From positions 320,001 through 384,000 of the forward strand of contig CAVSGP010000004.1 in the NCBI GenBank assembly GCA_963727505.1: a stretch of 64,000 nucleotides of DNA. Reading direction: 5' to 3'. The notes under the pieces are model-generated. The model saw only the letters and a list, made by a program, of their open reading frames with translations, did no database searches and was not told the DNA's origin. The DNA comes from an uncultured Trueperaceae bacterium. GTDB lineage: Bacteria > Deinococcota > Deinococci > Deinococcales > Trueperaceae. Positions 9,474-26,422 of the stretch are shown here, one piece after another; position 1 is the first letter of the stretch, and the number at the start of each line of letters is the position of its first letter. Position numbers and translations under genes: made by a program.

Positions 9474-9810
9474 CGGGCGGTTCCTCCGGAGCATCGACGC
9501 TCTCCACGTTGACGTTGACGCTCCGGACCTTCAGGCCGGTCATCGACGCCACCGCCTCCCGCACCGACGTCTGCGCCCGCGACGCCACGGCGGGGATCTC
9601 CACGCCGTAGGCAACCGCCACCCGCAGGTCGACGTACACGTCCGCGCCTTCGCGCTCGATCTGGATCCCCTTCGCGCGGCGGCCGCTCAGGAACTCGCCG
9701 ACCCGGGCCGGCGGCACGATCGGTCGCATGCCCTCGATCTCGTCGAGGGCGAGCTGAGCGATGCCGTACAGCACATCGGGGGCGATCTCGAGATCGGGAC
9801 CTTCGGTCAC
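9466..9810 (-). CDS. Asp23/Gls24 family protein (YqhY-like)
   Basis: 'IAPDVLYGIA...VDLRVAVAYGVEIPAVA...MTGLKVRSVNVNV'. Sits in its typical position between accC and nusB. Confidence 0.88.
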   Translation of the reverse strand: MTEGPDLEIAPDVLYGIAQLALDEIEGMRPIVPPARVGEFLSGRRAKGIQIEREGADVYVDLRVAVAYGVEIPAVASRAQTSVREAVASMTGLKVRSVNVNVESVDAPEEPPGG

Positions 9811-11144
9811 GGTGACATCCTTCGAGCCACGAAGTTGGTGTAGATCGCGCCACGCCGGAAGAAAGCGTTGTCCAGGACCTTCAGGTGGAACGGCACGGTG
9901 GTCTTCACCCCTTCGATGACGGTCTCGCGCAGGGCGCGCTCCATGCGGGCGATCGCCTCTTGCCGGGTAGGCGCCCAGGCGATGATCTTGGCGATGAGGC
10001 TGTCGTAGTTGGGCGGGATGCGATAGCCGGCGTAGACGTGCGAGTCCACACGGATGCCCGGCCCGCCGGGCCAGTGGACGTCGCTGATGGTTCCCGCCGA
10101 GGGGCGGAAGTCGTGGTCGGGGTCCTCCGCGGTGACCCGCACCTCGATGGCGTGCCCCTCCAGGCGCACGTCCTCCTGGGCCAGCGAGAGGCCCATGCCG
10201 GCCGCGACCCGGAACTGCTCCTGCACCAGATCGAAGCGGGTGACCATCTCGGTGGTCGGGTGTTCGACCTGGATGCGCGTGTTCATCTCGCTGAAGTAGA
10301 AGTTGCCGTCGCGGTCGACCAGGAACTCGCACGTGCCGGCGCCGCGATACTCGATGTGGCGCGCAAGCTTCACGGCGGCCTCGATGATGCGCTGGCGCAG
10401 GTCGTCGTCGACGATGCTGGGCGCCTCCTCCAGCATCTTCTGGTAGCGACGCTGGATCGAGCAGTCGCGCTCGAAGAAGTGGATCACGTTGCCCTCGCCG
10501 TCCCCGAACACCTGCACCTCGATGTGCTTGGGCTCCTCCAGGTACTTCTCCATGTAGAGCTCGGGATTGGCGAAGGCGGCCCGCGCTTCCTCCTGGGCGT
10601 TCACGAACTGCCGCTCGAGGTCCTGGAAGCTGTGGACGACGCGCATGCCGCGCCCCCCACCCCCTGCCGAAGCCTTGAGGATGAGCGGGAAGCCGATGCG
10701 CTCGGCGAACGCTCGAGCAGCGTCCAGGTCCTTGAGCGGCTCCGACCCCGGCGTGATCGGGACCCCCGCCTCCTCGGCCAGCCGCCGCGCGGCCGCCTTG
10801 TCGCCGATGCGCTGGATGTTCTCGGCGCGGGGGCCGATGAAGACGAGATTGTGCTCCTCGCACTTCTCCGCGAACTCCGCATTCTCGGCCAGGAAGCCGT
10901 AGCCCGGATGGATCGCCTCGGCGCCGGTCACCAGCGCCGCGGACAGGATGTTACGGACGTTGAGGTAGCTCGCGCTCGCGGGGGCGGGGCCGATGCAGAT
11001 GGCCTCGTCGGCGAGCAGGACCGGCAGCGAGTTCTCATCGACCTGTGAGTACACCACCACCGTCTGGATGCCGAGCTCACGCGCGGCGCGCAGCACGCGC
11101 AGGGCGATCTCGCCTCGGTTCGCGATCAGGATCTTGCGGAACAC
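9807..11144 (-). CDS. accC: Acetyl-CoA carboxylase biotin carboxylase subunit
   Basis: 'KILIANRGEIA', 'HPGYGFLAEN', 'GGGGRGMR', 'ERDCSIQRR' and 'EMNTRIQVEH'. Confidence 0.97.
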   Translation of the reverse strand: MFRKILIANRGEIALRVLRAARELGIQTVVVYSQVDENSLPVLLADEAICIGPAPASASYLNVRNILSAALVTGAEAIHPGYGFLAENAEFAEKCEEHNLVFIGPRAENIQRIGDKAAARRLAEEAGVPITPGSEPLKDLDAARAFAERIGFPLILKASAGGGGRGMRVVHSFQDLERQFVNAQEEARAAFANPELYMEKYLEEPKHIEVQVFGDGEGNVIHFFERDCSIQRRYQKMLEEAPSIVDDDLRQRIIEAAVKLARHIEYRGAGTCEFLVDRDGNFYFSEMNTRIQVEHPTTEMVTRFDLVQEQFRVAAGMGLSLAQEDVRLEGHAIEVRVTAEDPDHDFRPSAGTISDVHWPGGPGIRVDSHVYAGYRIPPNYDSLIAKIIAWAPTRQEAIARMERALRETVIEGVKTTVPFHLKVLDNAFFRRGAIYTNFVARRMSP

Positions 11145-11162
11145 GATGTCGGTCCCCGAGCC

Positions 11163-11659
<497 letters not shown>

Positions 11660-11660
<1 letters not shown>

Positions 11661-12217
11661 CAGGCACGCCCCAGGTATTCGCCGCTGCGCGTGTCGACGC
11701 GGATCACCTCGCCCTGCTCGATGAACAGGGGCACGTTGACGGTCGCCCCCGACTCGAGAAGCGCAGGCTTGTTGCCGCCCGAGACGGTGTCCCCGCGTAC
11801 GCCGGGATCGGTCTGCGTGATCTCGAGCTCGACCACGTTGGGCAACGTGACCTTGAGGGGTCTGCCCTGGTAGTAGTCCACCGTCACCTCCAGGTTGGGC
11901 TTGAGGAAGCGGGCCGTTTCACCGATCTGGTCCCGGCTCAGCACGGGTTGCTCGAACGTCTCCATATCCATGAAGGTGCACAGGTCACCGTCGGCGAACA
12001 GGTACTGCATCTGACGGTAGTCGATGAAGATGTCCTGCAGCTTCTCCGTGGCGTTGAAAGTGCGCTCGACGATCGACCCGCTCTCCAGGCTGCGGAACTT
12101 GCCGACCACCTTGGCACCCCCCCGCCCGATCTTCTGGTGCTGGTAGTCCAGGCACTCCCACAGGCCGCCATCCATCTCGACCTTCGTCCCGTTGCGCAGG
12201 TCCGTCACACTGATCAT
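11660..12217 (-). CDS. efp: Elongation factor P
   Basis: 'DLRNGTK', 'HQKIGRGGA' (Arg at the loop tip), 'PGVRGDT' and 'VDTRSGEYLGRA'. Confidence 0.96.
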
Positions 12218-12361
12218 CCACTAGCCTCCGACGCATCACGGCACGTACCCGACCGCAGATGGCGGCACGCGCTCGCGGAAGTTCAAGACGCAGCACAGTG
12301 TAGCACCCGGGCACGCGTGCCCCTGGCGCGCCGTGCTGCTCGTTCAACGCTCTGGGCGCCT

Positions 12362-13264
12362 TCAGGACGTGAGCTCGAGCACCGTCGGCTCGAGCCCCGC
12401 CTCCTCGATCATGGCACGGTAGCGCTCGGCGGAGAGCTCGCCCGAGCCTCCATCGATGGCGACGAACGCGGCCTCCAACAGATTCGTACCCACGCTGCGC
12501 CCGTCGAAACGTGGGGTGGTCGTGATCAGGGTACGCACGCCGCGCGCCTTCAGGAAGGCGACATCGGACTCGGTGGTGGTGTTGGTGAGCACCGTCTTGC
12601 CACGCATATCGTCGGGGGCGTAGCGACGGATGAAGTGCCAGTCTCCCGCGATGACGTCGGCCCAGCGGTAGTAGCGCGAGAAGCGCTCGGTGGTGACCTC
12701 GGTCTCCTGGCTCGCCCCTACCGGGTAGAGCCACTTGAACGGGAGCTTCACGAACACCGGCAAGAGGACCGTGGCGAGGGCATGCAGGGTCCCCAACCGG
12801 TACAGCGGGATCGGCAGGCCCAGCGAGAAGATGAAGTCTCCGAACAGCACGTGGGCGCCGTGCGACGCCAGCTCCTCAGCCATGCCGAAGCGGTCGAGCG
12901 CGGAGACCATCAGCACCTTGCGTCCCTGCCACGGCAGCCGGTCCGAGAGTGCCCGCACCATGGCCCGCTCCAGGCTGTTCTTCAGGCCTGCGCCGCACAC
13001 CACCGGCGTGCGCTTCGCCGCCGCAGCGAGGCCGCGCGCGTCGCGAAAGTAGTAGCGCCGGCTCCCCACCGGAAGGAAGAGGTCGATGCCCCCCAGACCG
13101 ATGGCGTCGACCTCGCCGTCGAGCTCACGGATGAGGTCACGCGCGGCGTCGAAGTCGCCCTGCGTCCCCCGCCGTTCCAGGTGGACCTGCTCGCCCAGGA
13201 TGCTGACGGTCTGATCGGTATCGCGCGTGGCCGAACCGAGGGAGACGCTGACGACATGCTTCAT
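12362..13264 (-). CDS. Conserved uncharacterised protein (family often auto-annotated 'quinate 5-dehydrogenase')
   Basis: 'MKHVVSVSLGS', 'VDAIGLGGIDL', 'DRFGMAE', 'LTNTTT' and 'GRSVGTNLLEA'. A TATCCT -10 box lies 7 nt before the ATG. Confidence 0.65.
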   Translation of the reverse strand: MKHVVSVSLGSATRDTDQTVSILGEQVHLERRGTQGDFDAARDLIRELDGEVDAIGLGGIDLFLPVGSRRYYFRDARGLAAAAKRTPVVCGAGLKNSLERAMVRALSDRLPWQGRKVLMVSALDRFGMAEELASHGAHVLFGDFIFSLGLPIPLYRLGTLHALATVLLPVFVKLPFKWLYPVGASQETEVTTERFSRYYRWADVIAGDWHFIRRYAPDDMRGKTVLTNTTTESDVAFLKARGVRTLITTTPRFDGRSVGTNLLEAAFVAIDGGSGELSAERYRAMIEEAGLEPTVLELTS

Positions 13265-13353
13265 GGCGGAAAGGATACACCGTCGTCTCCCCGGGGCACA
13301 CATCCCTGCTCGCCCCGTGCGGTCGGGGTCGCGATTCTCCGTCAGGCCCAGGG

Positions 13354-13890
13354 TCAGCCGAGCTGCTTGGCGTACCAGTCGAGCACGGGCTTCGCGTCGA
13401 TCGCGAAGGCGTACCCCAGTCTCTCCCAGAAGCGGCGCGCGCGCGGATTCTGCCCGTAGATGCTGGCGAGCACCCGTCGCACGCGGCCGCGTAGACGCTC
13501 TTCGAGATCGCGCACGCATTGGCCGCCGATGCCGCGCCCCTGCAGGTCGCCTTCGACCAACAGCAAGTTGACCGTGGCATCTCCGGCGTCGGGGTAGTCG
13601 AGCTTGTAGTCGAGGTAGCCCACGACCTGACGCCCGCTCACCGGGTCCTCGAGTTCGGTATCGCGCGGAAGGCGCTCATGAGGAGGCAAGAGCACCAGCT
13701 CGATTCGCCGCCGGCTGTCGCGGACCGCGGTGTCGAGGTCCGTCTTGACTTCGGCGAGCGTCGGGATCGGGATGGAGATGACGTCGAAATAGCCGGGGGT
13801 CTTCTCGTAGAGTCGATGGACCAGGGTGGCATCTGACGCGTCGGCGGGACGCGTCAGGGCACCGGGCGACGTCAGATTCAATGCGCTCAT
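13354..13890 (-). CDS. GNAT family N-acetyltransferase
   Basis: Acetyl-CoA motif 'LQGRGIG' and 'NPRARRFWERLGY'. GGAAGG RBS precedes the ATG at 13890. Confidence 0.85.
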   Translation of the reverse strand: MSALNLTSPGALTRPADASDATLVHRLYEKTPGYFDVISIPIPTLAEVKTDLDTAVRDSRRRIELVLLPPHERLPRDTELEDPVSGRQVVGYLDYKLDYPDAGDATVNLLLVEGDLQGRGIGGQCVRDLEERLRGRVRRVLASIYGQNPRARRFWERLGYAFAIDAKPVLDWYAKQLG

Positions 13891-14122
13891 CCTTCCGGCA
13901 CTCCTCGCATGCACGGCACGTAGGTTTTGACGGCCACGGCACGAGTATATCGTGCCCGGCGGAACACTCGCGGAGGATTGGGTCACACGCCGAGGGCCCC
14001 TGGGGCCCGTTCCCGTTCGCTGGAGGACAGGGCGATAAGGAGGAAACATCGCTTGCGCCTGGGAGCACCATTGCGTAGGGTGTGACGAGCCATCGCCCCC
14101 GTGCAGGACTTCGACGGGTGCG

Positions 14123-14131
14123 TGCTATAGT
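14123..14131 (+). promoter_or_regulatory. Extended -10 promoter for the spt operon
   Basis: TGcTATAGT (TG at 14123-24, TATAGT at 14126-31), about 25-35 nt upstream of the TTG starts. Confidence 0.5.
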
Positions 14132-14154
14132 GCCCTAATTGGCTTGCAGCCGCG

Positions 14155-15423
14155 TTGGAGGAAGTCTTGTCAGAGGTCGTTGACGCCCGCCAGAATCCGG
14201 TGACTCAGGAAGGCTCCGAGCAGCGCTCGGGGCGAGCCCGGGACGCCTTCGCGAAGGCCTTCGCGTTCAGTCGCGCCGAACAGGCCGAGTCGGCGGGCCT
14301 GCACCCCTACTTCAAACCCATCGCCGCCCAGCACGGCGGAACCGTCCGCGCGAACGGACGGGAGATGGTCATCACCGGTTCGAACGACTACCTGGGCCTG
14401 ACCCAGGACGAGCGCCTCAAGAACGCGGCCCGCGACGCGCTGGACGACTTCGGCACGAGCTGCACCGGCTCGCGCTTCCTGACCGGCACGCTGACGCTCC
14501 ACGAGACGCTCGAGCAGCGTCTCGCGAGCTTCCTCAACAAGGAGGCGGCTCTCACGTTCAGCGCCGGTTATCTCGGTTGCCTCTCGGTTGTGAGCGCCCT
14601 CGCCGGTCGGCACGACATCCTGTACTACGACCGCGAGAACCACGCCTCGCTCTACGACGCTGCTCGTCTGTCGTTCGCGACCTTGCGCAAGTACGATCAC
14701 AATGACCTCGATCACCTCGAGCGCCTTCTGGCTGCGGACGCCGACAAGCCGGGTGGGCGCATCATCGTGTCCGACGGCGTCTTCTCCATGAGCGGCCACA
14801 TCGTGGACCTGCCGGGCCTGGTCGAGGTCAAGCGCCGCTACGGCGCGCGCCTGATGATCGACGACGCCCACGCCAGCGGCGTTCTGGGCGACGGCGGCCG
14901 TGGCACCGGCGAGCACTTCGGCCTCGAGGACGAGGTCGACGTCATCATCGGCACCTTCTCGAAGTCGTTCGCGAGCGTCGGCGGGTTCATGGCCGGTGAT
15001 CACAAGGTGGTGCAGTTCGTCAAGCATCACGCGCGCCCCTTCATCTTCACCGCCGCCCTGCCCGCCATGCAGATGGCGGCCGCGCTTGCCGCGCTCGACA
15101 TCATGGAGACCGAACCCGAGCATCGCCGGCGCCTGTGGAGCAACGTCCAGCGCTTCCGCACCGGGATGCAAGAGCTCGGCTTCGATACGCTCGGCTCCGA
15201 GACCCCGATCGTGCCTGTGCTGGTAGGCGAGGATGACCGAGCGCTGGCCTTCTGGAAGGGCCTGTGGGACGCGGGTGTGTTCACGACCCCGGCGCTGCCG
15301 CCCGGTGTTCCCCCCGGGCACTCGATCATCCGGACCAGCGTCAACGCGAACCACACGGACGACGAGCTCGACCGCCTTCTCACCGCGTTCGAAACGGTGG
15401 GCAAGGGGCTTGGTGTAATCTGA
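14155..15423 (+). CDS. spt: Alpha-oxoamine synthase, serine palmitoyltransferase-like clade
   Basis: N-terminal 'GLHPYFKPI', 'GSNDYLGL', 'GTSCTGSRFLTGTL', 'DRENHAS', 'DDAHASG' and PLP-Lys motif 'GTFSKS'. These resemble Bacteroidota/Sphingomonas SPT more than BioF/Kbl. The start may be TTG 14167 (GGAGG upstream). Confidence 0.72.
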   Translation: MEEVLSEVVDARQNPVTQEGSEQRSGRARDAFAKAFAFSRAEQAESAGLHPYFKPIAAQHGGTVRANGREMVITGSNDYLGLTQDERLKNAARDALDDFGTSCTGSRFLTGTLTLHETLEQRLASFLNKEAALTFSAGYLGCLSVVSALAGRHDILYYDRENHASLYDAARLSFATLRKYDHNDLDHLERLLAADADKPGGRIIVSDGVFSMSGHIVDLPGLVEVKRRYGARLMIDDAHASGVLGDGGRGTGEHFGLEDEVDVIIGTFSKSFASVGGFMAGDHKVVQFVKHHARPFIFTAALPAMQMAAALAALDIMETEPEHRRRLWSNVQRFRTGMQELGFDTLGSETPIVPVLVGEDDRALAFWKGLWDAGVFTTPALPPGVPPGHSIIRTSVNANHTDDELDRLLTAFETVGKGLGVI

Positions 15424-15447
15424 CAACCGAATAAGGGGTGATCAGCC

Positions 15448-16557
15448 ATGGTCGAGATCAAGAAGGTCGCGACGAAGCGCGACCTCGGTCGTTTCATTGA
15501 TTACGTCTACGACAAATACCGGGGTGATCCGACCTTCGTGCCCCCGCTGCGCATGGGGGAGTTCGACAAGCTGAACCCGAAGAAGAACCCCTTCTTCGAG
15601 CACGGCCGGATCACCCCCTACCTCGCCGAACGCGACGGACGCATCGTCGGCCGCATCGCCTGCATCGACAACGACGCCCACAACGAGCAGTTCGGAGACA
15701 ACCTGGTGTTCTTCGGGTTTTTCGAGGCCGAGGACGCCGAGATCGCCGCGGCGCTGTACGAAGCCGTCGAGAAGGAGGCGCGGGCGCTGGGCAGGGACAC
15801 CGTTCGCGGTCCCGCCAACCCCACCATGGACGACGGCGCCGGCTTCCAGATCGATGCCTTCGAGACCAGGCCGTTCATCATGATGCCGCAGAATCCGCCG
15901 GACTATCTGGGCTTCGCCGAGGCTTCCGGTTACAGCAAGATCAAGGACCTCTACGCTTGGAAGATCGACATCCGCCACGGCGCCACCGAACGCCTGGAGC
16001 GCATGGCCGATCGCGTACGCAAGCGCTACGACGTCACGGTGCGACCCGCCGACATGAAGCAGTTCAAGCGCGAGGTCGGCCTGCTCAAGCACCTCTACAC
16101 CGTCGCCTGGGAGGAGAACTGGGGGCAGGTGCGCGGCACCGACGCGGAGTTCGACTATCTTGCCAACGACCTCAAGATGATCATGGAGCCGGAGCTGGCG
16201 CTCTTCCTCGAGTACAAGGGGGAGACGGTGGGGCTCTCGATCACCATCCCGGACCTCAACCAGGTGCTGGCGAAGTTCAACGGCCGGCTCTTCCCCTTCG
16301 GGATCTTCCACCTGCTCAACCGCAAGAAGATCATCGACCAGGGACGGCTCGCCATCCTCGGGGTGTTGCCGGAGTATCGCCGGAAGGGTTTCGAGCTGCT
16401 CATGATCGCCGAGACCGCGCGGCGCGGTCGCGCCATCGGCTACACCGGCGGCGAGTGCAGCTGGGTGCTCGAGGACAATGACGCCATGAACCGTGGGATC
16501 GAGGCGGCGGGCAGCGAGCTCTACAAGACCTACCGTATGTACCAGAAGGCGCTGTGA
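15448..16557 (+). CDS. Tandem-GNAT N-acyltransferase, YghO / bacterial ceramide synthase (bCerS)-like
   Basis: 'DLGRFI..Y..DP.FVPPL...NPKKNPFFEH', 'VGRIA', 'FFGFFE', 'FIMMPQNPPDY', 'AWEENWG', 'IPDLNQ', 'LGVLPEYRRKG' and 'ECSWVLEDN..MNR'. Confidence 0.75.
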   Translation: MVEIKKVATKRDLGRFIDYVYDKYRGDPTFVPPLRMGEFDKLNPKKNPFFEHGRITPYLAERDGRIVGRIACIDNDAHNEQFGDNLVFFGFFEAEDAEIAAALYEAVEKEARALGRDTVRGPANPTMDDGAGFQIDAFETRPFIMMPQNPPDYLGFAEASGYSKIKDLYAWKIDIRHGATERLERMADRVRKRYDVTVRPADMKQFKREVGLLKHLYTVAWEENWGQVRGTDAEFDYLANDLKMIMEPELALFLEYKGETVGLSITIPDLNQVLAKFNGRLFPFGIFHLLNRKKIIDQGRLAILGVLPEYRRKGFELLMIAETARRGRAIGYTGGECSWVLEDNDAMNRGIEAAGSELYKTYRMYQKAL

Positions 16558-17288
16558 GCCCGCTGCGTTCGGTCGGCGTGGTGTTCGCCGACCTGGCGCA
16601 GCTGTTCGACCGGAAGCACGCCCGGCTGTGGTTCCTGCTCACTGCGGCGGTGCTTCTGCAGGTGGGATTCTGGTACATCGCCAGCCCCGGCCCCGCGCTC
16701 ATGCAGTTCCAGCCGCGCACGCTGACGACAGGCATCACCACGGTGGCGTGGTCCCTGGTGTTCCTGCTGGCCCTGCCCGCACTGTTGCTGGCGGTCGTGG
16801 GCGTCGATCTCAGGCACGTCGGGCTTCGCCTCGGCGACGCCCGGTTCGGCCTCTCCGTGGCGCTGGGCGGCGCCGTGATCGTCGTGCCGCTGATGTACCT
16901 GGCCAGTTTCGACAAGGGGCTCCAGGCGACCTACCCCTGGGCGGGCGCCTGGGTCGGGCGCAGCCTCGGCACCATCTTGCTTTGGGCCCTCATCTACGGC
17001 CTGTACTACGTCGCGTTCGAGTTCTTCTACCGAGGCTTCCTGCAGCGCATCGTCGCCGACGCCTGGGGCGCCCCGCAGGGCATCTGGGTGCAGACGTTGG
17101 CGGCCACCCTCATCCACCTAGGGAAGCCCATGACCGAGCTGCTGGCCGCGCTGCCCGCCAGCCTGCTCTTCGGAGCGCTGGCGCTGCGCAGCCGGTCGGT
17201 GCTCTACTCCACCATCATCCATCTGGTCATCGGCCTGTCCACCGATCTGTTCGTGCTCTACCACCAGGGCCTGCTGTTCCACCGCTGA
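16554..17288 (+). CDS. CPBP (Abi/CAAX) family intramembrane metalloprotease-like protein
   Basis: Multiple TM helices with 'FEFFYRGFL', 'LIHLGKP' and 'STIIH'. Shares a GTGA overlap with the previous gene. Confidence 0.8.
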   Translation: MSPLRSVGVVFADLAQLFDRKHARLWFLLTAAVLLQVGFWYIASPGPALMQFQPRTLTTGITTVAWSLVFLLALPALLLAVVGVDLRHVGLRLGDARFGLSVALGGAVIVVPLMYLASFDKGLQATYPWAGAWVGRSLGTILLWALIYGLYYVAFEFFYRGFLQRIVADAWGAPQGIWVQTLAATLIHLGKPMTELLAALPASLLFGALALRSRSVLYSTIIHLVIGLSTDLFVLYHQGLLFHR

Positions 17289-17348
17289 CGCCATGGCCCG
17301 CCGCGACGCCCGAAATGACCGAGCGAGACCCCTTCCTGGTAGGCTTGG

Positions 17349-18350
17349 ATGGCGACGGCTGTCATGAAAGTCCTGGTTACCGGTGCCCATGGCTTCCTCG
17401 GGAGCCACATCAGCGAACACCTGCTGGCCGCAGGCCACCAGGTGCGGGCCCTCGTCTCCCCCTGGGGGACCATCGGGAACCTGTCCGCGGTGCTCGATCG
17501 GCAGAGCTTGGAGATCCGGCGCGCCGACCTCAGCCGCGAGGGCGCCCTGGGCGGCGCCTGCGACGGCGTCGATGCCGTGGTGCACGCCGCCGCCCGCGTC
17601 GCCGACTGGGGACCTTGGGACGCCTTCTACCGCACCAACGTGATGGGCACGCAACAGCTCCTGCAGGAGGCCACCCGTGCGGGCGCAGCTCGTTTCGTGC
17701 TCATCTCCAGCGTCGCCGTCCACCGCTACAGCGGCTTCCGCAACGCCGACCCGCGTGAGGTCCCCCGCGACAACCTGCGCGAGGCCTACGCGCACTCCAA
17801 GATCATGGCCGAGGACCTGGTCCGGCAGGCCGAGGGGATCGAGGGCGTGATCGTGCGCCCCGGGCTGTGGCCCTTCGGCCCGCGGGATCCCAACTTCCGC
17901 CGCGTGGCACGCGCGCTCGAGCAGGGCGTTCTCCCCATGGTGGGGAGCGGCGACAGCGTCATCAACACGGCCTACGCCGAGAACCTCGCCCTCGGGATAC
18001 GCCTGGCGTTGGAGCGCGCGGAGGCGGCCCACCGCTCGTACGTGATCGCCGACGACGGCATGCCGAGCTGGCGGGAGCTGCTCGCCGAGCTGGCGCGCCT
18101 CCTGGGCGAGCGTCCGCCCCGGTTGCGCCTGCCCGGGACCCCCACCAAGGCGCTCGCCCGCGGCGTGGAAGCGACCTGGGGAGCCCTCTTCCCGCGCAAC
18201 GAGCCCCCCATGACACGCTACCGTGCTGGATTGATGACCCGCGACGTGCACTTCAGCATCCGGCACGCCGTGGAGGAGCTGGGCTACCACCCGGTGGTGT
18301 CCTGGCGCGAGGGGCTGCGCCGCTCGGTAGGTGCCCTCGCCCCCGTCTAG
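17349..18350 (+). CDS. Extended SDR NAD-dependent epimerase/dehydratase (3-beta-HSD-like); candidate 3-keto-sphingoid/ceramide reductase
   Basis: 'VLVTGAHGFLG', 'VVHAAA', 'TNVMGT', 'ISSVAV' and catalytic 'YAHSK'. An alternative start is ATG 17364. Confidence 0.82.
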   Translation: MATAVMKVLVTGAHGFLGSHISEHLLAAGHQVRALVSPWGTIGNLSAVLDRQSLEIRRADLSREGALGGACDGVDAVVHAAARVADWGPWDAFYRTNVMGTQQLLQEATRAGAARFVLISSVAVHRYSGFRNADPREVPRDNLREAYAHSKIMAEDLVRQAEGIEGVIVRPGLWPFGPRDPNFRRVARALEQGVLPMVGSGDSVINTAYAENLALGIRLALERAEAAHRSYVIADDGMPSWRELLAELARLLGERPPRLRLPGTPTKALARGVEATWGALFPRNEPPMTRYRAGLMTRDVHFSIRHAVEELGYHPVVSWREGLRRSVGALAPV

Positions 18351-18416
18351 GGCCGGTTCGACGTGCCGCCGCCCCTCCAACCGGGAGCTCTGGCGGCGGT
18401 GGTATGGTGGCGCGAC

Positions 18417-19517
18417 ATGAGCGAGGGATTCGACTTCCTCATCGTGGGCGCAGGCTTCTCGGGAGCTGTCCTCGCCGAACGGATCGCCAGCCAGCGCGGC
18501 GGTAGCGTGCTGGTCGTGGACCGCCGCGATCACATCGGGGGCAACGCCTACGACGAGTACGACGACAACGGCGTGCTGGTCCACCGCTACGGGCCGCACA
18601 TCTTCCACACCAACGCCAAGAGCGTGTTCGATTACCTGTCACAGTTCACGGGCTGGCGTCCCTACCAGCACCGCGTGAGGGCCCTGGTCGATGGCCGCCT
18701 GGTGCCGATCCCGATCAATCTCGATACCATCAACACCCTGTACAACCTCGACCTGTCGAGTTCCGAGCTGGAGGCGTTCTTCTCGGCGCGCGCCGAGAAG
18801 CGCGAGCGCATCGAGACGTCCGAAGACGTGGTGGTGGCGCGCGTCGGGCGGGAGCTGTTCGAGAAGTTCTTCCGCGGCTACACCAAGAAGCAGTGGGGGC
18901 TCGAGCCCAAGGAGCTCGACGCCACCGTGACCGCGCGCGTGCCGGTGCGCACCAACCGCGACGACCGCTACTTCACCGACGTCTACCAGGCGATGCCCCT
19001 CCACGGCTACACGGCGATGTTCCGCCGCATGCTGCGCCATCCCAACATCAAGGTGATGCTCAACACCGACTACCGCGAGGTGGCCGATCTGGTACCCCAC
19101 AAGCACCTGATCTACACCGGTCCCATCGACGGCTACTTCGAGCACAGCCTGGGCCCGCTACCCTACCGTTCGCTGGAGTTCGAGTTCGTCACCCACGACG
19201 AGGAGCAGGTGCAGGAGACCGGCACCACCAACTACCCGAACGACTACGCCTACACCCGGCGCACCGAGATGAAGCACCTGACCGGCCAGCGGCACGCCAA
19301 GTCGGTGCTCGTGTACGAGCACCCACGCGCCGAGGGCGATCCCTACTACCCGGTGCCCAGGCCCGAGAACCGGGCGCTCTACGAGGAGTACAGCACCATG
19401 GCCGCCGAGCTCGCGCACGTCACGTTCGCCGGCCGTCTCGGTACCTACCGGTACTACAACATGGATCAGGTCGTGGCACAGGCGCTCAAGACCTTCGAGA
19501 CGCTGCCGGACGTGTGA
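18417..19517 (+). CDS. glf: UDP-galactopyranose mutase
   Basis: 'IVGAGFSG', 'HIGGNAYD', 'HRYGPHIFHT', 'YTKKQWG', 'DPYYPVP' and 'GRLGTYRYYNMDQVV'. Confidence 0.96.
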   Translation: MSEGFDFLIVGAGFSGAVLAERIASQRGGSVLVVDRRDHIGGNAYDEYDDNGVLVHRYGPHIFHTNAKSVFDYLSQFTGWRPYQHRVRALVDGRLVPIPINLDTINTLYNLDLSSSELEAFFSARAEKRERIETSEDVVVARVGRELFEKFFRGYTKKQWGLEPKELDATVTARVPVRTNRDDRYFTDVYQAMPLHGYTAMFRRMLRHPNIKVMLNTDYREVADLVPHKHLIYTGPIDGYFEHSLGPLPYRSLEFEFVTHDEEQVQETGTTNYPNDYAYTRRTEMKHLTGQRHAKSVLVYEHPRAEGDPYYPVPRPENRALYEEYSTMAAELAHVTFAGRLGTYRYYNMDQVVAQALKTFETLPDV

Positions 19518-19542
19518 CGTCCGGGACACCGGGGTCAAGCTC

Positions 19543-20721
19543 ATGACGTCACCGAGCGGCACGCGCCCGCGCATCCTCATCGCCATGATCGAGGCCGGGG
19601 GCGGACACCGGGCGCCCGCCCTGGCGTTGCAGGCCGCCCTGGAGCGGGTCCGGCCCGGACGCTTCGACGTCGACGTCTTCGACATCATGCGCCACGTCGG
19701 CGAGGTGGCGCTGGACCGTCGCCACAAGCAGAGCTGGAAGTGGATGCTCGCCCACCCGCGGGTCACCTTCGTGCTGCAGAACGCCATCGATCGCGTCGTA
19801 CCCGTGGCCTGGACCCAGGCCGTGCAGGCTCGGACGCTAGCCGGCTTCCGCCGACGTCTCTCCTCCTTCGTGCGCGAGCAGGGCTACGATCTGGTCGTGG
19901 CCGTGCACTTCATGCCGCTGCAGGCGGCCGCGATGGCCCGCCGTCGGGGCGAGCTGGGCGCCCGGGTGGTGGGCGTCGATACCGACCCCTTCGACGGCCA
20001 CGCCCTCTGGGCGGTCCGGGACGCCGACGAGATCGTGGTGGCGAGCGAGCAGGCGAGGGCGCTGCTGAGCGCCAAGGGCGTGCCCGCTGAGCGGGTGAAG
20101 GTCTTCGGCTACCCGCTCAACCTCGCCTTCGTGGAAACCGTTCCCGACGCCGAAACCGCGCGCCGTCAGCTCGGCCTCGACGCCGCCCGCCTCACCGTGC
20201 TCCACACTCCGGGAGGCGAAGGCATCGGCGGTGATGTCGAAGGCATCGTCAAGGCGGTGCTGGCAGCCGATCTCGACCTGCAGTATGTGGTCATCGCCGG
20301 GCGCAACGAGCAACTCCGCGCGCGGCTGCAGGACCTGGCGGACGCCCACGCCGCTCGGGGAGGCCGGACCCGCCTCAAGGTCGAGGGGTTCACCACCAAC
20401 ATGCCGGAGTGGATCGCGGCCAGCGATCTGGTGCTCGGCAAGGCCGGGGCGGCATCGACCTTCGAGGCGCTGGCGCTGGGCAGGCCCATCTTCCACACCA
20501 GCTACGTGGCGCCCAACGAGAAGCGCAACCTCGAGTACTGCCGGCAGCACGAGATCGGCGGCTACGTGCCCAGGCCCCGAGACGTCGTCGGGCTGCTGGC
20601 GCCCCTCTGCCAGGATCCGGCGCCCCTGCACACCTGGCAAGAGCGCGTCCGAGCTCTGGGCCTCCAGCCGGGAACACTCGACATCGCTGAGCATCTGGCG
20701 GCGCTGGCGGAGGCCCCTTGA
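19543..20721 (+). CDS. GT28-type glycolipid glycosyltransferase (MGDG synthase/UgtP family)
   Basis: 'AGGGHRAPALAL', 'VDTDP...HALW', 'GGEGIG', 'GFTTNMPEWIAASDLVLGKAG' and 'EKRN'. Confidence 0.87.
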   Translation: MTSPSGTRPRILIAMIEAGGGHRAPALALQAALERVRPGRFDVDVFDIMRHVGEVALDRRHKQSWKWMLAHPRVTFVLQNAIDRVVPVAWTQAVQARTLAGFRRRLSSFVREQGYDLVVAVHFMPLQAAAMARRRGELGARVVGVDTDPFDGHALWAVRDADEIVVASEQARALLSAKGVPAERVKVFGYPLNLAFVETVPDAETARRQLGLDAARLTVLHTPGGEGIGGDVEGIVKAVLAADLDLQYVVIAGRNEQLRARLQDLADAHAARGGRTRLKVEGFTTNMPEWIAASDLVLGKAGAASTFEALALGRPIFHTSYVAPNEKRNLEYCRQHEIGGYVPRPRDVVGLLAPLCQDPAPLHTWQERVRALGLQPGTLDIAEHLAALAEAP

Positions 20722-21713
20722 ACAGGATGGTCCTGCGCTCGCTGATCGTCTCCATGGTGCTCAGCGCGTTGGGGCTCGCCTGGGTCGTGTTCCGGGTAGG
20801 CACGCTCCAGGACCTCGCCAGCATCCGCCAACTACGATGGACCTACGGTGTCTGCGCCGTGCTCGGCCTGCTCGGCGCCTTCGTGATGGCGGCGTTCCGG
20901 TTGCGCTTCATGTGCCGCCGCCTGGGCCACACGGTGAAGCTCCGCCATGCCCTGAGAGCGCACATCTTAGGCATGTTCAGCGCCACCGTCACGCCGGGCG
21001 GAAGCGGCGCCACTCCAGCCCTGGCCCTGTCGCTGCAGAGCCAGGGTCTGCCGCCGGGGGTGGCGTGGGCGGTAGGCGTGTCCGTGTTCGGGGCCGACGC
21101 GCTGTTCCACGCCTGGGGGCTCCCCATCGCGCTCGGTCTGCTCTACGCCCTGCATCTCTACCCGCACGCGCCCGGTTGGCTGGCGCTCGGCGCGCTGACG
21201 GTGGCGCTGTCGGCGGGGGTGGCCTACCTGGTGCAGTTCCGGCTCGAGTGGTTGGAGCCGATCGCGCGCTGGGCTCTCCGCGGGCCGCTGGTCCGCTTCC
21301 GCCGTCGCGGATTGCGCTTCGTCGAAACCATGCTCGAGTCCAACCGACTGTTCAAGCGCGCACCGGCGCGCTTCCACCTGATTCTGCAGGCCCTCACGAC
21401 TCTCTCATGGATCTCGTTCTTCTCGGTCCTGTTCTTCGTGGCGCGCGGCCTCGGGCTGCTGGTCTCCCTCGCCTCCATCGAAGCCGCACAGATGGTGGTG
21501 ACGGTGATGTCCACCTTCGTGCCCACACCGGGCGGGAGCGGCTTCCTGGAGCTCGGCATCTCCTACGTGCTGGTCTCGTCCGGAGGCAGTGCGTCGGCAT
21601 CGGTCCCTGCGGCGGTGCTGCTGTGGCGGCTCGTGACCTACTACTCGATCTTCCTACTCGGCCCCCTACTGGGCGGGTACCTGCTGACGCAGCGGATGGC
21701 CCCCGATGCCTGA
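20718..21713 (+). CDS. UPF0104 / lysylphosphatidylglycerol synthase TM-domain (flippase-like) membrane protein
   Basis: Hydrophobic protein with 'VTPGGSGATP', 'FVPTPGGSGFLE' and 'LLWRLVTYY'. Confidence 0.85.
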   Translation: MNRMVLRSLIVSMVLSALGLAWVVFRVGTLQDLASIRQLRWTYGVCAVLGLLGAFVMAAFRLRFMCRRLGHTVKLRHALRAHILGMFSATVTPGGSGATPALALSLQSQGLPPGVAWAVGVSVFGADALFHAWGLPIALGLLYALHLYPHAPGWLALGALTVALSAGVAYLVQFRLEWLEPIARWALRGPLVRFRRRGLRFVETMLESNRLFKRAPARFHLILQALTTLSWISFFSVLFFVARGLGLLVSLASIEAAQMVVTVMSTFVPTPGGSGFLELGISYVLVSSGGSASASVPAAVLLWRLVTYYSIFLLGPLLGGYLLTQRMAPDA

Positions 21714-21765
21714 GAAGCCGCCCGGCCGCACCCACGACCGGGTGCCCGGTGGTACGCTTCGCCGG

Positions 21766-23025
21766 ATGAGCGACTCGGAGACGGCGCTCCGCTTTGCACT
21801 CGCCACGCCGGACTACCCCCCCGATCCCATGGGAACCGGCATCGGAACCTACGCCAAGAGCCTCGCCGAAGGCCTGACGAGGCGTGGGCACCGGGTCCAC
21901 GTTGTAACGCGGGGGCCGGAGGGGGACGCCACGGTCGACGACGGCGGCGTGACGGTTCACCGTATCGGCGTGCAACGGCCGGACTTCCCGACCCACATCG
22001 CCCCGCTCGCCTTCGTAGGCCTCGCCGCGCGGAGCATCGCGAACGAGTTCCGCTACCGCTCGCGCGTCGCGGCCACGCTCGACATGCTGGTGCGGCGCGA
22101 AGGCGTGCAACTCGTGGAGGCCGCGGACTCCTTCGTAGAGGCGCTCTTCTACCGAGCCGCCCGCCACCCGAAGGTGCCCTTCGTGATCCGGCTCCACACC
22201 CCGATGTCGGTGGCAGAACGCTTCGATCGGAACTTGCCCGAGCCGGCCCGCCGCTTGCTTCAGAGTATCGAGCGCGTCCATCTGCGTAGGGCGACACATC
22301 TGAGCGTGCCGAGCGCCACTCCCCGCCGCACCTTCCGGGAGGCCATGCGCCTCGGCGGTCGTCCCATCGAGGCCATCCCCAACCCGCCGCCGGGAATGCC
22401 CGCTGTCACGGCTGCACGAACCAGCATCACGAACGCCGTAACGGACCCGGCCGCACCCGAGGTCCTTTACGTCGGGAGGATCACCGCCGTCAAGGGCGTA
22501 TTCGTGCTCGCCGATGCCATACCCAAAGTGCTCGAGAAGGTGCCAGGAGCGCACTTCCGCTTCGTGGGCGCAGACAGCCCTGCCTCCTCCGGATCGGGCA
22601 CCACGGTGGAGGCCCTCAGGGACCGCCTACCGCAGGCGGCCGCAGCGAAGGTCACCTTCGAGGGGCGCGTTCCGCTACAGCGCATCGGCGCCTACTTGCA
22701 GGGCGCGAGCGTTTGCGTCTTCCCCTCGTTGTTCGAGAACTTCCCCTATACCTGCCTAGAGGCGATGGCTGCCGGCAAAGCCGTCGTCGGCAGCGCGGCG
22801 GGCGGCATGCAGGACATGCTGGACGGCGGGGAGTGCGGCCTTCTTTACCATCCTCCGAACGTCGGCGAGCTCGCCGACGCCATCGTCCGGCTTCTCACCG
22901 ATCACGAGCTTCGCAGCCGCCTGGGCGCCGCTGCCCGTCGCCGCGCCGGCGATGCGTACGGCGAGGACCGGGTCTTCGACGCGACCGTCGGCTTCTACCG
23001 GCGCGCCATCGAGAGCCTCGCCTGA
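21766..23025 (+). CDS. Glycosyltransferase family 4
   Basis: 'YPPDPMGTGIGTY', 'GHRVHVVT', 'YVGRITAVKG' and the EX7E motif 'PSLFENFPYTCLEAMAAG'. A TACGCT -10 box lies 7 nt before ATG 21766. Confidence 0.9.
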   Translation: MSDSETALRFALATPDYPPDPMGTGIGTYAKSLAEGLTRRGHRVHVVTRGPEGDATVDDGGVTVHRIGVQRPDFPTHIAPLAFVGLAARSIANEFRYRSRVAATLDMLVRREGVQLVEAADSFVEALFYRAARHPKVPFVIRLHTPMSVAERFDRNLPEPARRLLQSIERVHLRRATHLSVPSATPRRTFREAMRLGGRPIEAIPNPPPGMPAVTAARTSITNAVTDPAAPEVLYVGRITAVKGVFVLADAIPKVLEKVPGAHFRFVGADSPASSGSGTTVEALRDRLPQAAAAKVTFEGRVPLQRIGAYLQGASVCVFPSLFENFPYTCLEAMAAGKAVVGSAAGGMQDMLDGGECGLLYHPPNVGELADAIVRLLTDHELRSRLGAAARRRAGDAYGEDRVFDATVGFYRRAIESLA

Positions 23026-23083
23026 TGTCGCACCGGCCGAACGTTCACGATTTCGTTCTGGAGCGCCCTGTACACTGGGGGTC

Positions 23084-25651
23084 GTGACGGCGCTGCGTCG
23101 TTTGGCCCTCCTGAACCTGCTCCGGCACCCCTGGCGCAGCCTGGCCACGGTCCTGGGTGTGGGGATCGGCATCGCGGCGGTGCTGACCACCCTGTCGGTC
23201 GGCGCCAACGTCGAGGCCAACGTGCGCGGCGCGCTGCAGGCGGCCGCGGGCAAGGCCGACCTGCTGGTCACGCCGGGCGCCGGCGGACGCGCCGTCTTCG
23301 AGGACGGCCCCGCCCTCGACCTGCTGCGCACCGTCACCGGCGTGAAGGCGGTCTATCCGGTCCTCAACACCCGCGCGGAACCCGTGCGCGCCATCCAGGA
23401 CTTCCAGAAGTCGATCATCCCCGGCGTCGATACCGGGTTCCAGCTCAGCGGTCGCGTCACGACCGAGCCCGCTGACCTGCCGGCCGAGCTCGCGCAGGGC
23501 GCCCTCCCCCAACCCGGGTCGAACGGCGTGGCCATCGCTCAGGGATTCGCTCGCGAACGCGGGATCGCGATGGGCGACACCGTTCGCTTCGCCACCAGCT
23601 TCGGCGACATCCCGCTCACGGTGACGGGCCTCCTCGACGACCGCTACGGGCTGGCCAGCACCAACGGCGGGCGGGTCGGCATCATCGCCATCCAGGACCT
23701 CCGGACCATCCTCCACATGCAGGGGCGCGCCTCCCACATCGAGGTCCTGGTGGATCCATCGGTGCCGGTGGAGGACGTGCGCACGCGCATCGAGGCCCGT
23801 CTCCCGTCGCTGTCGCAGGATCTGACCGTCACCTACCCGGCGGTATCCGGCAACGTGGCATCGGGCATCGTCGACACGCTGCAGTCAGGGCTGTCCGTGC
23901 TTGCGGTGACCCTGCTCGCGCTGGGCGGGTTCATGGCTTACAACACCTTCATGGCCTCGGTGGTGGAGCGCACGCGGGAGTACGCGCTGCTGCGCACCAT
24001 CTGTATGACGCGGGGGGACGTGCAACGCCTGGCGCTGTACGAGGCGGGCGCCCTGAGCCTCGTCGGGGTGCTGGCGGGGCTTGTCCTCGGCGTCGGACTG
24101 GCCTACGTCATCACGCGCATGAACGCGGTCAACCTGGGTTTCGATTTCCGGACGCTGGTCATCCCGGTTCGCAGCGTGGCCCTGGCATCCGGGGTCGGCA
24201 TGATCGTCTCGCTGGCCGCAGGCGTCCTGCCGGCGCGCAGCGCCTCACGCACACCCCCCATCGCGGCCAGCCGCGTTGCGGACGAAGCCCCGTCGCCGCG
24301 CCTGGCGGCGCTGGGCTGGGGCCTGCTGGCATTGGGCGTGGTGTTGGGCGTCCTGCCGTGGTCGGGGTATCTCGCGCTCGCCGCCAGCGGCACCGCGATG
24401 GCGGTGTTCTTCGTCGGGGTGGCCCTGGCCACGCCGAGCCTGCTCCGCCCCTCCCTCCGGCTGCTCACGCCCCTGCTCGCGCGCCTCTTCGGCGCCTCGG
24501 GACGCCTGGGCAGCAACTTCGCCCTGCGCAACGCCGCCCGCAACGGCGTGGCCATCGGCACCGTGGCCGTCGGCACCGGGCTGATCATCGGCGTCGGGTC
24601 GATGGTCGCCGGCATCAACCGGGCCATCGGCTCCTGGGTCGACACCACCATCGTGGGTGACCTGTTCGTGACCTCTCCGGTCAGCTTCCCGGACGACTTC
24701 GAGCAGAAGGCGCAGCAGGTCCCGGGCGTGAACGTGGCCAGCGGCGTCGGCATCCGGGTCGTCCGGTTCGAGCCGAAGGGAGGCGGGCGCGGCCGCTCGA
24801 TCGCGATGATCCTGGTCGACCCGCAGCGCTTCGACCCCAGCGGCGGCTTCGGCCACTTCCAGTACATCCAGGGCCAGGGCGACAACCGCGAGGGCTACCG
24901 CGCTCTGTCGAAGGGCAGTGAGGTCCTGGTGGCCAACACCATGCGCGACAAGTATGGCGTCCAGAAGGGCGACACCATCCGCTTGCGAACCGTCGACGGC
25001 TTCAAGGACTTCCCCGTCGCCGGCGTGGTGGTCGACTTCACCGGCGGTGGCGAGACGGTGGTGGGAAGCATCCACGACCTGCCCCTGTTCGGGGGCGGCT
25101 CGCCCGACCTCTTCGTCATCGCCGACAAGCCCGGTGCCGACCCGCAGCAGGTGCGCCAGGCGTTGCTGACCCGTTTCCCGGGGCTGCACCTCGACGTCAC
25201 CCTCAACGCCGACTACCGGCGCTACGTCTTGAGCCTGACGCAACGATCGTTCCAGACCACCAACATGCTGCTGCTCATCGCGGTGCTGGTCGCGGCGCTG
25301 GGCGTGGCCAACACGCTGGGTATGAACCTGGTGAGCCGCAGTCACGAAATCGCCGTCCTGCGCACGGTCGGCATGACGCGCGGCGGAGTCAGGCGTCTCA
25401 TCGCCTCAGAGGGTATGGTGGTGACTTTGGTGGGCGCCGTACTCGGCGTGGCCTTCGGGTTGCTCCTCTCCCGCGTGATCAGTGCGGGCGCGAGCGCCCT
25501 GACCGGCTTCCTGCTGACGCCTGCGATCAACTGGGCCCTGGTGGGCCTGGCGCTGGCGGCGTCCCCCCTGGTGGGCCTGCTCGCGTCGCTGCTCCCCGCG
25601 CGGCGTGCGGCGCAACTCTCCCCCACCCGGGCGCTGGGATTCGTGGAGTGA
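23084..25651 (+). CDS. FtsX/MacB-like ABC transporter permease (duplicated periplasmic + FtsX domains)
   Basis: 'LLRHPWRSLATVLGVGIG', 'NTFMASVVERTREYALLR', a second repeat 'NTLGMNLVSRSHEIAVLRTVGMTR' and 'LLPARRAA'. A TACACT -10 box lies 7 nt before the GTG. Confidence 0.9.
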   Translation: MTALRRLALLNLLRHPWRSLATVLGVGIGIAAVLTTLSVGANVEANVRGALQAAAGKADLLVTPGAGGRAVFEDGPALDLLRTVTGVKAVYPVLNTRAEPVRAIQDFQKSIIPGVDTGFQLSGRVTTEPADLPAELAQGALPQPGSNGVAIAQGFARERGIAMGDTVRFATSFGDIPLTVTGLLDDRYGLASTNGGRVGIIAIQDLRTILHMQGRASHIEVLVDPSVPVEDVRTRIEARLPSLSQDLTVTYPAVSGNVASGIVDTLQSGLSVLAVTLLALGGFMAYNTFMASVVERTREYALLRTICMTRGDVQRLALYEAGALSLVGVLAGLVLGVGLAYVITRMNAVNLGFDFRTLVIPVRSVALASGVGMIVSLAAGVLPARSASRTPPIAASRVADEAPSPRLAALGWGLLALGVVLGVLPWSGYLALAASGTAMAVFFVGVALATPSLLRPSLRLLTPLLARLFGASGRLGSNFALRNAARNGVAIGTVAVGTGLIIGVGSMVAGINRAIGSWVDTTIVGDLFVTSPVSFPDDFEQKAQQVPGVNVASGVGIRVVRFEPKGGGRGRSIAMILVDPQRFDPSGGFGHFQYIQGQGDNREGYRALSKGSEVLVANTMRDKYGVQKGDTIRLRTVDGFKDFPVAGVVVDFTGGGETVVGSIHDLPLFGGGSPDLFVIADKPGADPQQVRQALLTRFPGLHLDVTLNADYRRYVLSLTQRSFQTTNMLLLIAVLVAALGVANTLGMNLVSRSHEIAVLRTVGMTRGGVRRLIASEGMVVTLVGAVLGVAFGLLLSRVISAGASALTGFLLTPAINWALVGLALAASPLVGLLASLLPARRAAQLSPTRALGFVE

Positions 25652-26394: not shown

Positions 26395-26422
26395 GCGGGC
26401 CGGCGCGGCCCCCGCAAACCGC

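Follow-up and report, generated by a model that had tools for sequence, protein, structure and literature searches.

A predicted ceramide-type locus with a putative head-group and export module in an uncultured Trueperaceae bacterium

The 64,000-nucleotide stretch of DNA analysed here (the window, C4:320001-384000) comes from the 3.26-Mb genome (G+C 65-73%) of an uncultured Trueperaceae bacterium of the phylum Deinococcota. It carries a plus-strand gene cluster that we consider likely to encode the bacterial ceramide pathway in a Trueperaceae version, with a putative head-group and export module attached in the same operon. The core encodes a serine palmitoyltransferase (SPT)-like alpha-oxoamine synthase (AOS), a tandem-GNAT N-acyltransferase resembling bacterial ceramide synthase (bCerS, or CerS), and an extended short-chain dehydrogenase/reductase (SDR). 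The product is probably a glycosylated (dihydro)ceramide, that is, a glycosphingolipid. It is well supported that the locus represents a known pathway in a lineage-specific form, distinguished by an inserted gene for a CPBP/Rce1-like membrane protein, a reductase lineage of its own, an altered SPT active-site residue and the attached glycosylation and export genes. The analysis covers gene content, homologies, fold, phylogenetic position and conserved synteny. An earlier first-pass annotation, made from the DNA letters, had placed a ceramide core at positions 14155-18350. The three co-oriented open reading frames (ORFs) that it singled out are present on the plus strand where it located them (Table 1), while a fourth gene inside the interval (CPBP, 16554-17288) and the downstream continuation of the cluster to about 26394 had been overlooked.

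Similarity searches place the synthase closest to SPTs. Its top NCBIfam match is SerpalmtaseCFB with 432 bits, followed by bioF (385), a BioF/Kbl-related model (380) and CqsA (202). Against solved structures, the SPT of Sphingobacterium multivorum scores best (361 bits), ahead of Thermus BioF/KBL (291), the Sphingomonas SPTs (266-275), the cysteate acyltransferase CFAT (270), Kbl (240), BioF (211) and CqsA (121); identity to the Sphingomonas enzyme is 36%. Phylogenetic analysis, which the first-pass annotation had named as a check able to refute its reading, agrees with this placement. The SPT references were taken from annotated records, each scoring above an NCBIfam SPT cut-off: Sphingomonas parapaucimobilis (833 bits, cut-off 670), B. 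finegoldii (700, cut-off 640), the E. coli PN43 cluster (600, cut-off 500) and Roseomonas (613, cut-off 500). Further references were the Prevotella and Rubrobacter radiotolerans homologues, E. coli BioF and Kbl, Ralstonia Kbl, S. meliloti HemA and the only other AOS of the genome. In a careful maximum-likelihood tree of 31 rows (12 references and 19 of the 80 loci sampled for synteny), the window synthase falls into a 26-row clade with the curated SPTs (support 98/97), apart from a separate clade of E. coli and Ralstonia Kbl with the second AOS of the genome (100/100) and from BioF and HemA, which lie outside. A quick tree of 43 rows (12 references and 31 of the 80 loci) unites it with all SPTs in a 38-row clade (support 97). 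Both trees are built without CFAT or CqsA rows, and BioF and HemA form long branches in them.

The active site of the synthase, numbered here according to S. multivorum SPT by alignment and assessed at the sites described in PMC10196870 and PMC13692747, is largely that of an SPT. The signatures quoted in the first-pass annotation (HPYF, GTSCTGSRFLTGT and GTFSKS) are all seen in the alignment; GTFSKS, named as an SPT motif in PMC10196870, occupies residues 266-271 of the window enzyme, and its Lys270 aligns with Lys244 of S. multivorum SPT, the Schiff-base lysine of this fold-type I pyridoxal 5'-phosphate (PLP) enzyme. Most of the residues that hold PLP and serine in the S. multivorum structure are kept (Asn52, Gly80-Ser81, His138, Ser185, Asp210, Ala212, His213, Thr241, Ser243, Lys244 and Phe272). 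Four columns (GSR, Ala238, Ser269 and Ala300) together separate SPT from Kbl, BioF and HemA, each of them setting it apart from two or more of the three, and the window enzyme has the SPT state in every one. It departs from S. multivorum SPT at three positions: Asn117 is replaced by cysteine (Cys142, codon at window positions 14578-14580), Glu187 by serine and Met271 by isoleucine.

The second enzyme links the locus to known sphingolipid gene clusters. In Caulobacter crescentus, the pathway comprises spt (CC_1162), cerS/bCerS (CC_1154), cerR (CC_1164), acpR and aasR (Olea-Ozuna 2021 and Stankeviciute 2022, as cited in PMC11324152 and PMC11087976), and PMC11324152 describes CC_1165-1162 together with CC_1154, the latter next to LptF2/G2. 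Over its full length (380 aligned columns), the window GNAT is 31% identical to an N-acetyltransferase from a Sphingomonas spt locus (E 2e-61), and the reciprocal search with the Sphingomonas protein returns only this GNAT from the window's genome (6e-54), in line with the bCerS-like enzyme that the first-pass annotation had proposed. The Sphingomonas homologue adjoins lptF/lptG and a desaturase gene and lies six genes from those for a CerR-like NAD(P)H-binding protein, an acyl carrier protein (ACP) and SPT, while in E. coli PN43 yghO adjoins genes for a fatty acyl-AMP ligase, an epimerase-family SDR, an ACP and an AOS as well as lptG/lptF. Since these layouts match the Caulobacter region, the N-acyltransferase genes of both organisms can be identified as cerS/bCerS by synteny. 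The Roseomonas homologue lies within a 25-kb lipid cluster. The description of the window protein as a tandem GNAT of the YghO type also holds: aligned along 100% of its length, it shares 31% identity with E. coli YghO (3e-46), and its AlphaFold model (predicted local distance difference test 90.8, predicted template-modelling score 0.89) is matched best by tandem-GNAT proteins, with 2wpw first (7.5e-14), followed by 7q3a (template-modelling score 0.63), 5kf1 and MshD.

Identities of the GNAT from tblastn range from 56% in R. radiotolerans through 35% in Roseomonas to 31% in E. coli YghO and Sphingomonas and 30% in Prevotella; 45 plasmid records contain a homologue. The family is large, with 5481 proteins at E values up to 1e-5 among 8000 candidates scored. 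General resources recognise it poorly: no NCBIfam model matches the GNAT even at E 10, nor are the Sphingomonas and E. coli homologues matched by any; a sequence search of the PDB returned nothing useful, and the ESM Atlas yielded only generic 'N-acetyltransferase' clusters. A side observation concerns E. coli itself. Some strains (PN43, record L085:2346-10125, next to glcC) carry paralogues of lptF/lptG, an AOS above the SPT equivalog cut-off, an ACP, an epimerase-family SDR and a fatty acyl-AMP ligase together with yghO; because the set beside it is complete, the uncharacterised YghO is, judged by gene content, a ceramide-synthase-family protein.

The third core enzyme, the SDR, carries the GxxGxxG and YxxxK motifs noted earlier (as GAHGFLG and YAHSK) and is predicted, from its class and position, to act as a 3-keto-lipid reductase. 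Its top NCBIfam matches are the OleD 2-alkyl-3-oxoalkanoate reductase (160 bits), HpnA (141) and SdmB (74), those to OleD and HpnA being below cut-off, and the CerR-like proteins from Sphingomonas and from E. coli show the same pattern of HpnA, OleD and SdmB. The window SDR is 30% identical to the Sphingomonas protein (259 columns), 28% to that of E. coli (333 columns) and 34% to that of R. radiotolerans, with a range of 31-34% for Rubrobacteraceae; the E. coli CerR-like protein ranks it first in the genome (2.3e-14, the next match being 1.1e-7). Between the GNAT and the SDR lies the gene for the CPBP protein, whose start overlaps the GNAT stop by 4 bases and which is translationally coupled to the ceramide-synthase-like gene. 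Glu155, Arg159, His188 and His223 of the CPBP protein are conserved in 43 sequences, and the usual EExxxR motif lacks its initial Glu. We know of no role of a CPBP/Rce1-like membrane protein in lipid synthesis.

The genes downstream are also tightly packed. Intergenic gaps in the operon run from -8 to 60 bases, with about -74 at the permease, whose start is uncertain; the flippase-like gene overlaps the GT28 gene by 4 bases, the GT4 gene overlaps the flippase-like gene by 8 bases, and the ATPase gene overlaps the 3' end of the permease gene. No terminator-like sites were found on the plus strand within 13300-26600, and the co-oriented unit runs from the synthase to about 26394. As the first-pass annotation had cautioned, neither a dedicated ACP nor an acyl ligase is encoded at the locus.

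Conservation of this layout was followed in 80 loci, assigned to three groups by record title and synthase similarity and counted wherever enough flanking sequence was available. The GNAT gene stands next to the synthase gene in 49 of 50 Trueperaceae-like loci, in all 10 Rubrobacteraceae-like loci and in 9 of 17 loci from distant phyla, and the SDR gene is present in 44/52, 9/9 and 15/17 of these groups, respectively. The CPBP gene is confined to Trueperaceae-like loci (40/44, as against 0/9 and 0/17) and was seen in no other sphingolipid-type locus examined. Among Trueperaceae-like loci, 34 of 41 have the GT28 gene and 29 of 40 the flippase-like gene downstream of the core; each of the two is also seen there in 6 of 7 Rubrobacteraceae-like loci, and neither in the distant phyla (0/16 each). 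A MacB-type permease gene lies downstream in 23 of 34 Trueperaceae-like loci. Glf was found in 4 of 41 Trueperaceae-like loci (0/7 and 0/16 in the other groups) and a GT4 homologue in 2 of all 80, which marks Glf as a variable accessory gene and GT4 as variable too.

By synthase identity, the nearest relatives are metagenome-assembled genomes (MAGs) of Trueperaceae and Deinococcales (69-94%) and Rubrobacteraceae (67-72%); homologues in KSB1, Aminicenantes, Cytophagia, Nitrospirota, Zixibacteria, Methylomirabilis and WOR-3 share 49-55%. A contig search with a Truepera MAG synthase matched no named isolate. The closest relatives of the GNAT outside Deinococcota are likewise those of Rubrobacteraceae. 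The careful tree unites the synthases of Trueperaceae with those of Rubrobacteraceae in a single long-stemmed clade (100/100), which suggests transfer of the gene between the two phyla, in either direction. Both families, although unrelated, are noted for tolerance of radiation and desiccation. In R. radiotolerans RSPS-4, the synthase, GNAT and SDR trio is found on the 191-kb plasmid 1 (L083:7707-13299), followed by a gene of the lipoteichoic acid (LTA)-synthase family; a few kb upstream of the trio there is a type I-D CRISPR-Cas locus.

Within Deinococcota, the GNAT was found in 98 of 301 sampled genomes. It is present in 87 of 102 genomes of the window's own family (f1, a count that includes the unpublished genome G251) and in 10 of 10 of a sister family (f5), and was not found in families f2 (0/112), f3 (0/62) and f4 (0/14). 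In the genomes sampled, the trait was found in the window's family and one sister family only, and not across the phylum as a whole. We also considered whether the cluster could explain the alkylamine or long-chain-diol lipids of the phylum, and rejected this candidate because the GNAT was not found in f2, f3 and f4.

From these data we infer the chemical steps, the substrates, the order of acylation and reduction, and the sugars, as follows. Condensation of a long-chain acyl-CoA with an amino acid (L-serine is the most likely) by the Spt-like PLP enzyme would give a 3-keto long-chain base; the acyl chain would probably be iso or anteiso, and the lack of a dedicated ACP gene would correspond to the Bacteroidota type. 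The bCerS-like tandem GNAT would then N-acylate the 3-keto base, and the extended SDR would reduce the 3-keto group to give dihydroceramide. GT28 could add a hexose, and Glf together with GT4 could add galactofuranose or further sugars. The MprF-type flippase-like protein would move the glycolipid across the inner membrane, from where the MacB-type ABC system may extract it towards the outer layers; the permease is assigned to the pathway by its position. The head-group steps are proposed because of the synteny in two phyla, the tight gene packing and the LTA-synthase-family gene at the GT28 position in R. radiotolerans. A head-group module exchanged in this manner would be expected behind a ceramide core. 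YpfP-type members of the GT28 family have been reported to transfer glucose to ceramide in vitro.

Table 1. Predicted genes of the lipid locus and their positions in the window
Feature	Position	Strand	Size and supporting matches
Spt-like alpha-oxoamine synthase (serine palmitoyltransferase-like)	14155-15423	+	422 aa; Pfam Aminotran_1_2 5.2e-59
bCerS/CerS-like tandem-GNAT N-acyltransferase, YghO family	15448-16557	+	369 aa; weak GNAT match PF00583 2.1e-4
CPBP/Rce1-like intramembrane protein	16554-17288	+	244 aa; Pfam Rce1-like 1.7e-9; NCBIfam MrtA-like 67.8 bits, below cut-off 200
Extended SDR, predicted 3-keto reductase	17349-18350	+	333 aa; Pfam Epimerase 3.5e-29, 3Beta_HSD 2.7e-23
UDP-galactopyranose mutase (Glf)	18363-19517	+	TIGR00031 388 bits, above cut-off 303.75
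GT28/MGDG-synthase-like lipid glycosyltransferase	19543-20721	+	Pfam MGDG_synth and Glyco_tran_28_C; NCBIfam diglucosyl-diacylglycerol synthase 97 bits, below cut-off 500
MprF-TM-type flippase-like membrane protein	20718-21713	+	Pfam LPG_synthase_TM 1.1e-32; TIGR00374 flippase-like domain 88.8 bits, above cut-off 43.2
GT4 glycosyltransferase	21706-23025	+	Pfam Glycos_transf_1 and Glyco_trans_4_4
MacB/LolC-type duplicated ABC permease, possible exporter	22952-25651	+	Pfam FtsX x2, MacB_PCD x2
ABC transporter ATPase, permease partner	25648-26394	+	Pfam ABC_tran 5.3e-32
Small divergent GNAT (RimI-like)	13354-14049	-	Pfam Acetyltransf_1 3.4e-9

It is important to consider the observations that weigh against this assignment. 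The synthase scores below all NCBIfam SPT equivalog cut-offs (SerpalmtaseCFB 432 against 640, BetaP 385 against 500 and AlphaP 299 against 670), the models having been built for Bacteroidota and Proteobacteria, and the stem common to the Trueperaceae and Rubrobacteraceae synthases amounts to 0.96-1.08 changes per site in both trees. Asn117, which lies next to the PLP ring and is Asn in 11 of 11 references (SPT, Kbl, BioF and HemA) as well as 17 of 17 homologues from distant phyla, has been lost in 53 Trueperaceae-like sequences (39 Cys, 12 Ser and 2 Ala) and is replaced in 10 Rubrobacteraceae-like sequences by Met (6), Val (3) or Ser (1). The GNAT and the SDR are connected with the characterised CC_1154 and CC_1164 by way of orthologues defined by synteny. 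The reservation of the first-pass annotation that the SDR is not clearly a CerR is borne out by mixed reciprocal searches and by its tree: the Sphingomonas CerR-like protein ranks the window SDR third in the genome (2.3e-9, after 2.4e-11 and 3.8e-10), and a quick tree of 41 rows, from which L027 and L031 were left out, contains a 37-row clade (support 99) in which three groups form an unresolved polytomy. One comprises the Trueperaceae SDRs including that of the window (11 rows at 100, stem 1.14), another the proteobacterial CerR-like proteins with the Rubrobacteraceae SDRs and L034, and the third the synthase-adjacent SDRs of other phyla; among the SDR paralogues of the genome, three fall outside the 37-row clade and two short, long-branched ones inside. 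Finally, weak GT28 paralogues occur in the Deinococcota families in which the GNAT was not found (f2 99/112, f3 22/62 and f4 12/14), and the sugar module could accordingly act on diacylglycerol.

Three other explanations of the locus were weighed. The pathway could run as proposed with a first enzyme that takes a different amino acid in place of serine (alanine or glycine to give 1-deoxy bases, cysteate to give a sulfonolipid, or another) and thus yield a non-canonical amino-lipid. The loss of the otherwise invariant Asn117 speaks for this, as do the altered position 213, the long stem branch of the clade and the scores below the SPT cut-offs; the only other family member seen without Asn117 is the cysteate enzyme CFAT, which has Gly-Met at this site where the window enzyme has Gly-Cys and the Rubrobacteraceae enzymes mostly Met. 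However, at the other sites listed in PMC13692747 as distinguishing CFAT, the window enzyme keeps the SPT state (Ser106 for CFAT Ala82, Ser165 for Cys141, Ser269 for Ala249 and Ala300 for Lys280), its PDB score is 361 bits to SPT versus 270 to CFAT, and known SPTs already accept alanine and glycine poorly (PMC10196870). Given the SPT state at the discriminating columns and at these CFAT-specific sites, serine is most likely the substrate, and we judge a different amino acid unlikely. An extended form of the same idea is equally doubtful: the remodelled Spt-like enzyme without Asn, common to Trueperaceae and Rubrobacteraceae probably by transfer, might make a non-canonical base that the Trueperaceae reductase and the CPBP enzyme turn into a new class of galactofuranose-bearing amino-glycolipids, possibly part of the uncharacterised glycolipids of Truepera.

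A second explanation accepts the ceramide core and assigns Glf, GT28 and GT4, the flippase-like protein and the ABC genes to a separate, neighbouring pathway for glycoglycerolipids or the envelope. Of the alternatives this is the one to be taken most seriously, even if it is rather less probable than a single joined pathway: as their NCBIfam names indicate, GT28/MGDG-synthase-like enzymes normally act on diacylglycerol, weak GT28 homologues are present in the GNAT-free families f2, f3 and f4, Glf and GT4 vary between loci (4/41 and 2/80), and the ABC system stands at varying distance from the core. Yet two phyla have both the GT28 and the flippase-like gene behind the core (GT28 in 34/41 and 6/7 loci), strong matches to GT28 within the phylum are neighbours of the GNAT gene, the genes are tightly spaced or overlapping with no plus-strand terminator found, and other sphingolipid loci also include glycosyltransferases and a flippase (Roseomonas, and Caulobacter CC_1166 as described in PMC11324152). 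That the PLP enzyme is instead a housekeeping BioF or Kbl, or a signal synthase of the CqsA type, with unrelated neighbours, is very improbable. The bioF and BioF/Kbl-related scores of 385 and 380 bits are not far under the 432 for SPT; against this, the trees place the enzyme with SPTs (98/97) and the second AOS of the genome with Kbl (100/100), the residue states are those of SPT and neither of Kbl nor of BioF, the CqsA scores are low (202 bits in NCBIfam and 121 in the PDB), and the GNAT and SDR genes stay adjacent across several phyla.

If the locus is read as a ceramide pathway with its own head-group and export genes, it can be compared with several known systems. It shares with Caulobacter and Sphingomonas the SPT-clade PLP enzyme, the YghO-family tandem GNAT and the NAD(P)-dependent extended SDR, along with glycosyltransferase, flippase and exporter genes nearby. 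Unlike those loci, it has no dedicated ACP or acyl-ACP synthetase, its reductase belongs to a separate SDR lineage, a CPBP gene is inserted, and a MacB-type system takes the place of a second LptF/G exporter. In addition, the GNAT gene lies directly downstream of the synthase gene in the same operon, whereas cerS of Proteobacteria is described in PMC11324152 as always residing in a different operon. The closest solved relative is the SPT of S. multivorum (PDB 3A2B and 8GUH; PMC10196870), of the ACP-independent type found in Bacteroidota, with which the window enzyme has GTFSKS and most serine- and PLP-contacting residues in common; it differs in having Cys for Asn117, Ser for Glu187 and Ile for Met271. 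The three pathway genes of Bacteroidota are reported as dispersed (PMC11334938), in contrast to the clustered genes of Trueperaceae. Rubrobacteraceae have the synthase (67-72% identity), the GNAT (51-57%) and the loss of Asn117 in common with the window, and the MAG loci share the tail of GT28 and flippase-like genes; these loci differ in having no CPBP gene and an SDR of the CerR-like type. R. radiotolerans stands out further, with the LTA-synthase-family gene replacing GT28 and the genes on a plasmid.

The locus also resembles the Spt-like 'clade B' loci that Ding et al. 2024 (PMC11334938) predicted in Black Sea metagenomes, in which an Spt-like gene lies close to bCerS and CerR homologues on the scaffold. 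According to that study, spt, bcerS and cerR are often clustered, Spt-like genes occur in MAGs of 38 phyla, and the potential producer phyla now number 40; its main text is silent on Deinococcota, Truepera and Rubrobacter, although its supplementary phylum list may include the lineage. In our own literature search, no publication came up that connects SPT or the synthesis of sphingolipids with Deinococcota, Truepera or Rubrobacter, the matches returned appearing unrelated by title and abstract; the first-pass annotation likewise knew of no description for Deinococcota.

For a long time, only a few groups of bacteria were believed to make sphingolipids; surveys of genes have since extended the prediction to dozens of phyla, and the chemistry lags behind. 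The lineage described here is open to direct testing, as the cultured extremophile Truepera radiovictrix belongs to its family and as the nearest outside relative of the genes is found in the cultured R. radiotolerans. The polar lipids of T. radiovictrix have never been resolved, and its genome paper describes unresolved glycolipids. Should the proposal prove correct, glycosphingolipids would join the envelope repertoire of the Deinococcus-Thermus phylum, the altered SPT active site would amount to a natural experiment, and the whole chain of synthesis, head-group addition and export would be encoded in one operon.

Further observations concern the envelope and the surroundings of the operon. 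A glycosphingolipid that replaces lipopolysaccharide, as in Sphingomonas, was considered and rejected, since the genome has an LpxC gene (PF03331, 200.8 bits). This gene is located outside the window at C9:313883-314629, with a weak LpxB-like match 3 kb away, and the same LpxC search gave no match in the control genomes of D. radiodurans and T. thermophilus; this Deinococcota lineage may, by its gene content, make a lipid A-like molecule.

Upstream of the synthase gene, on the minus strand, the small divergent GNAT gene is found in 39 of 49 Trueperaceae-like loci (0/8 Rubrobacteraceae-like, 0/17 distant phyla), and its membership in the pathway is uncertain. The roughly 1.1 kb between efp and this gene (12220-13350) holds only long overlapping ORFs, 11948-13459 (plus strand) and 12362-13519 (minus strand), neither with a Pfam match at E 0.1. 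The housekeeping genes accC, accB and efp (minus strand, 9807-12217) stand directly upstream of the lipid operon, which places the locus in the core chromosome, with no obvious island.

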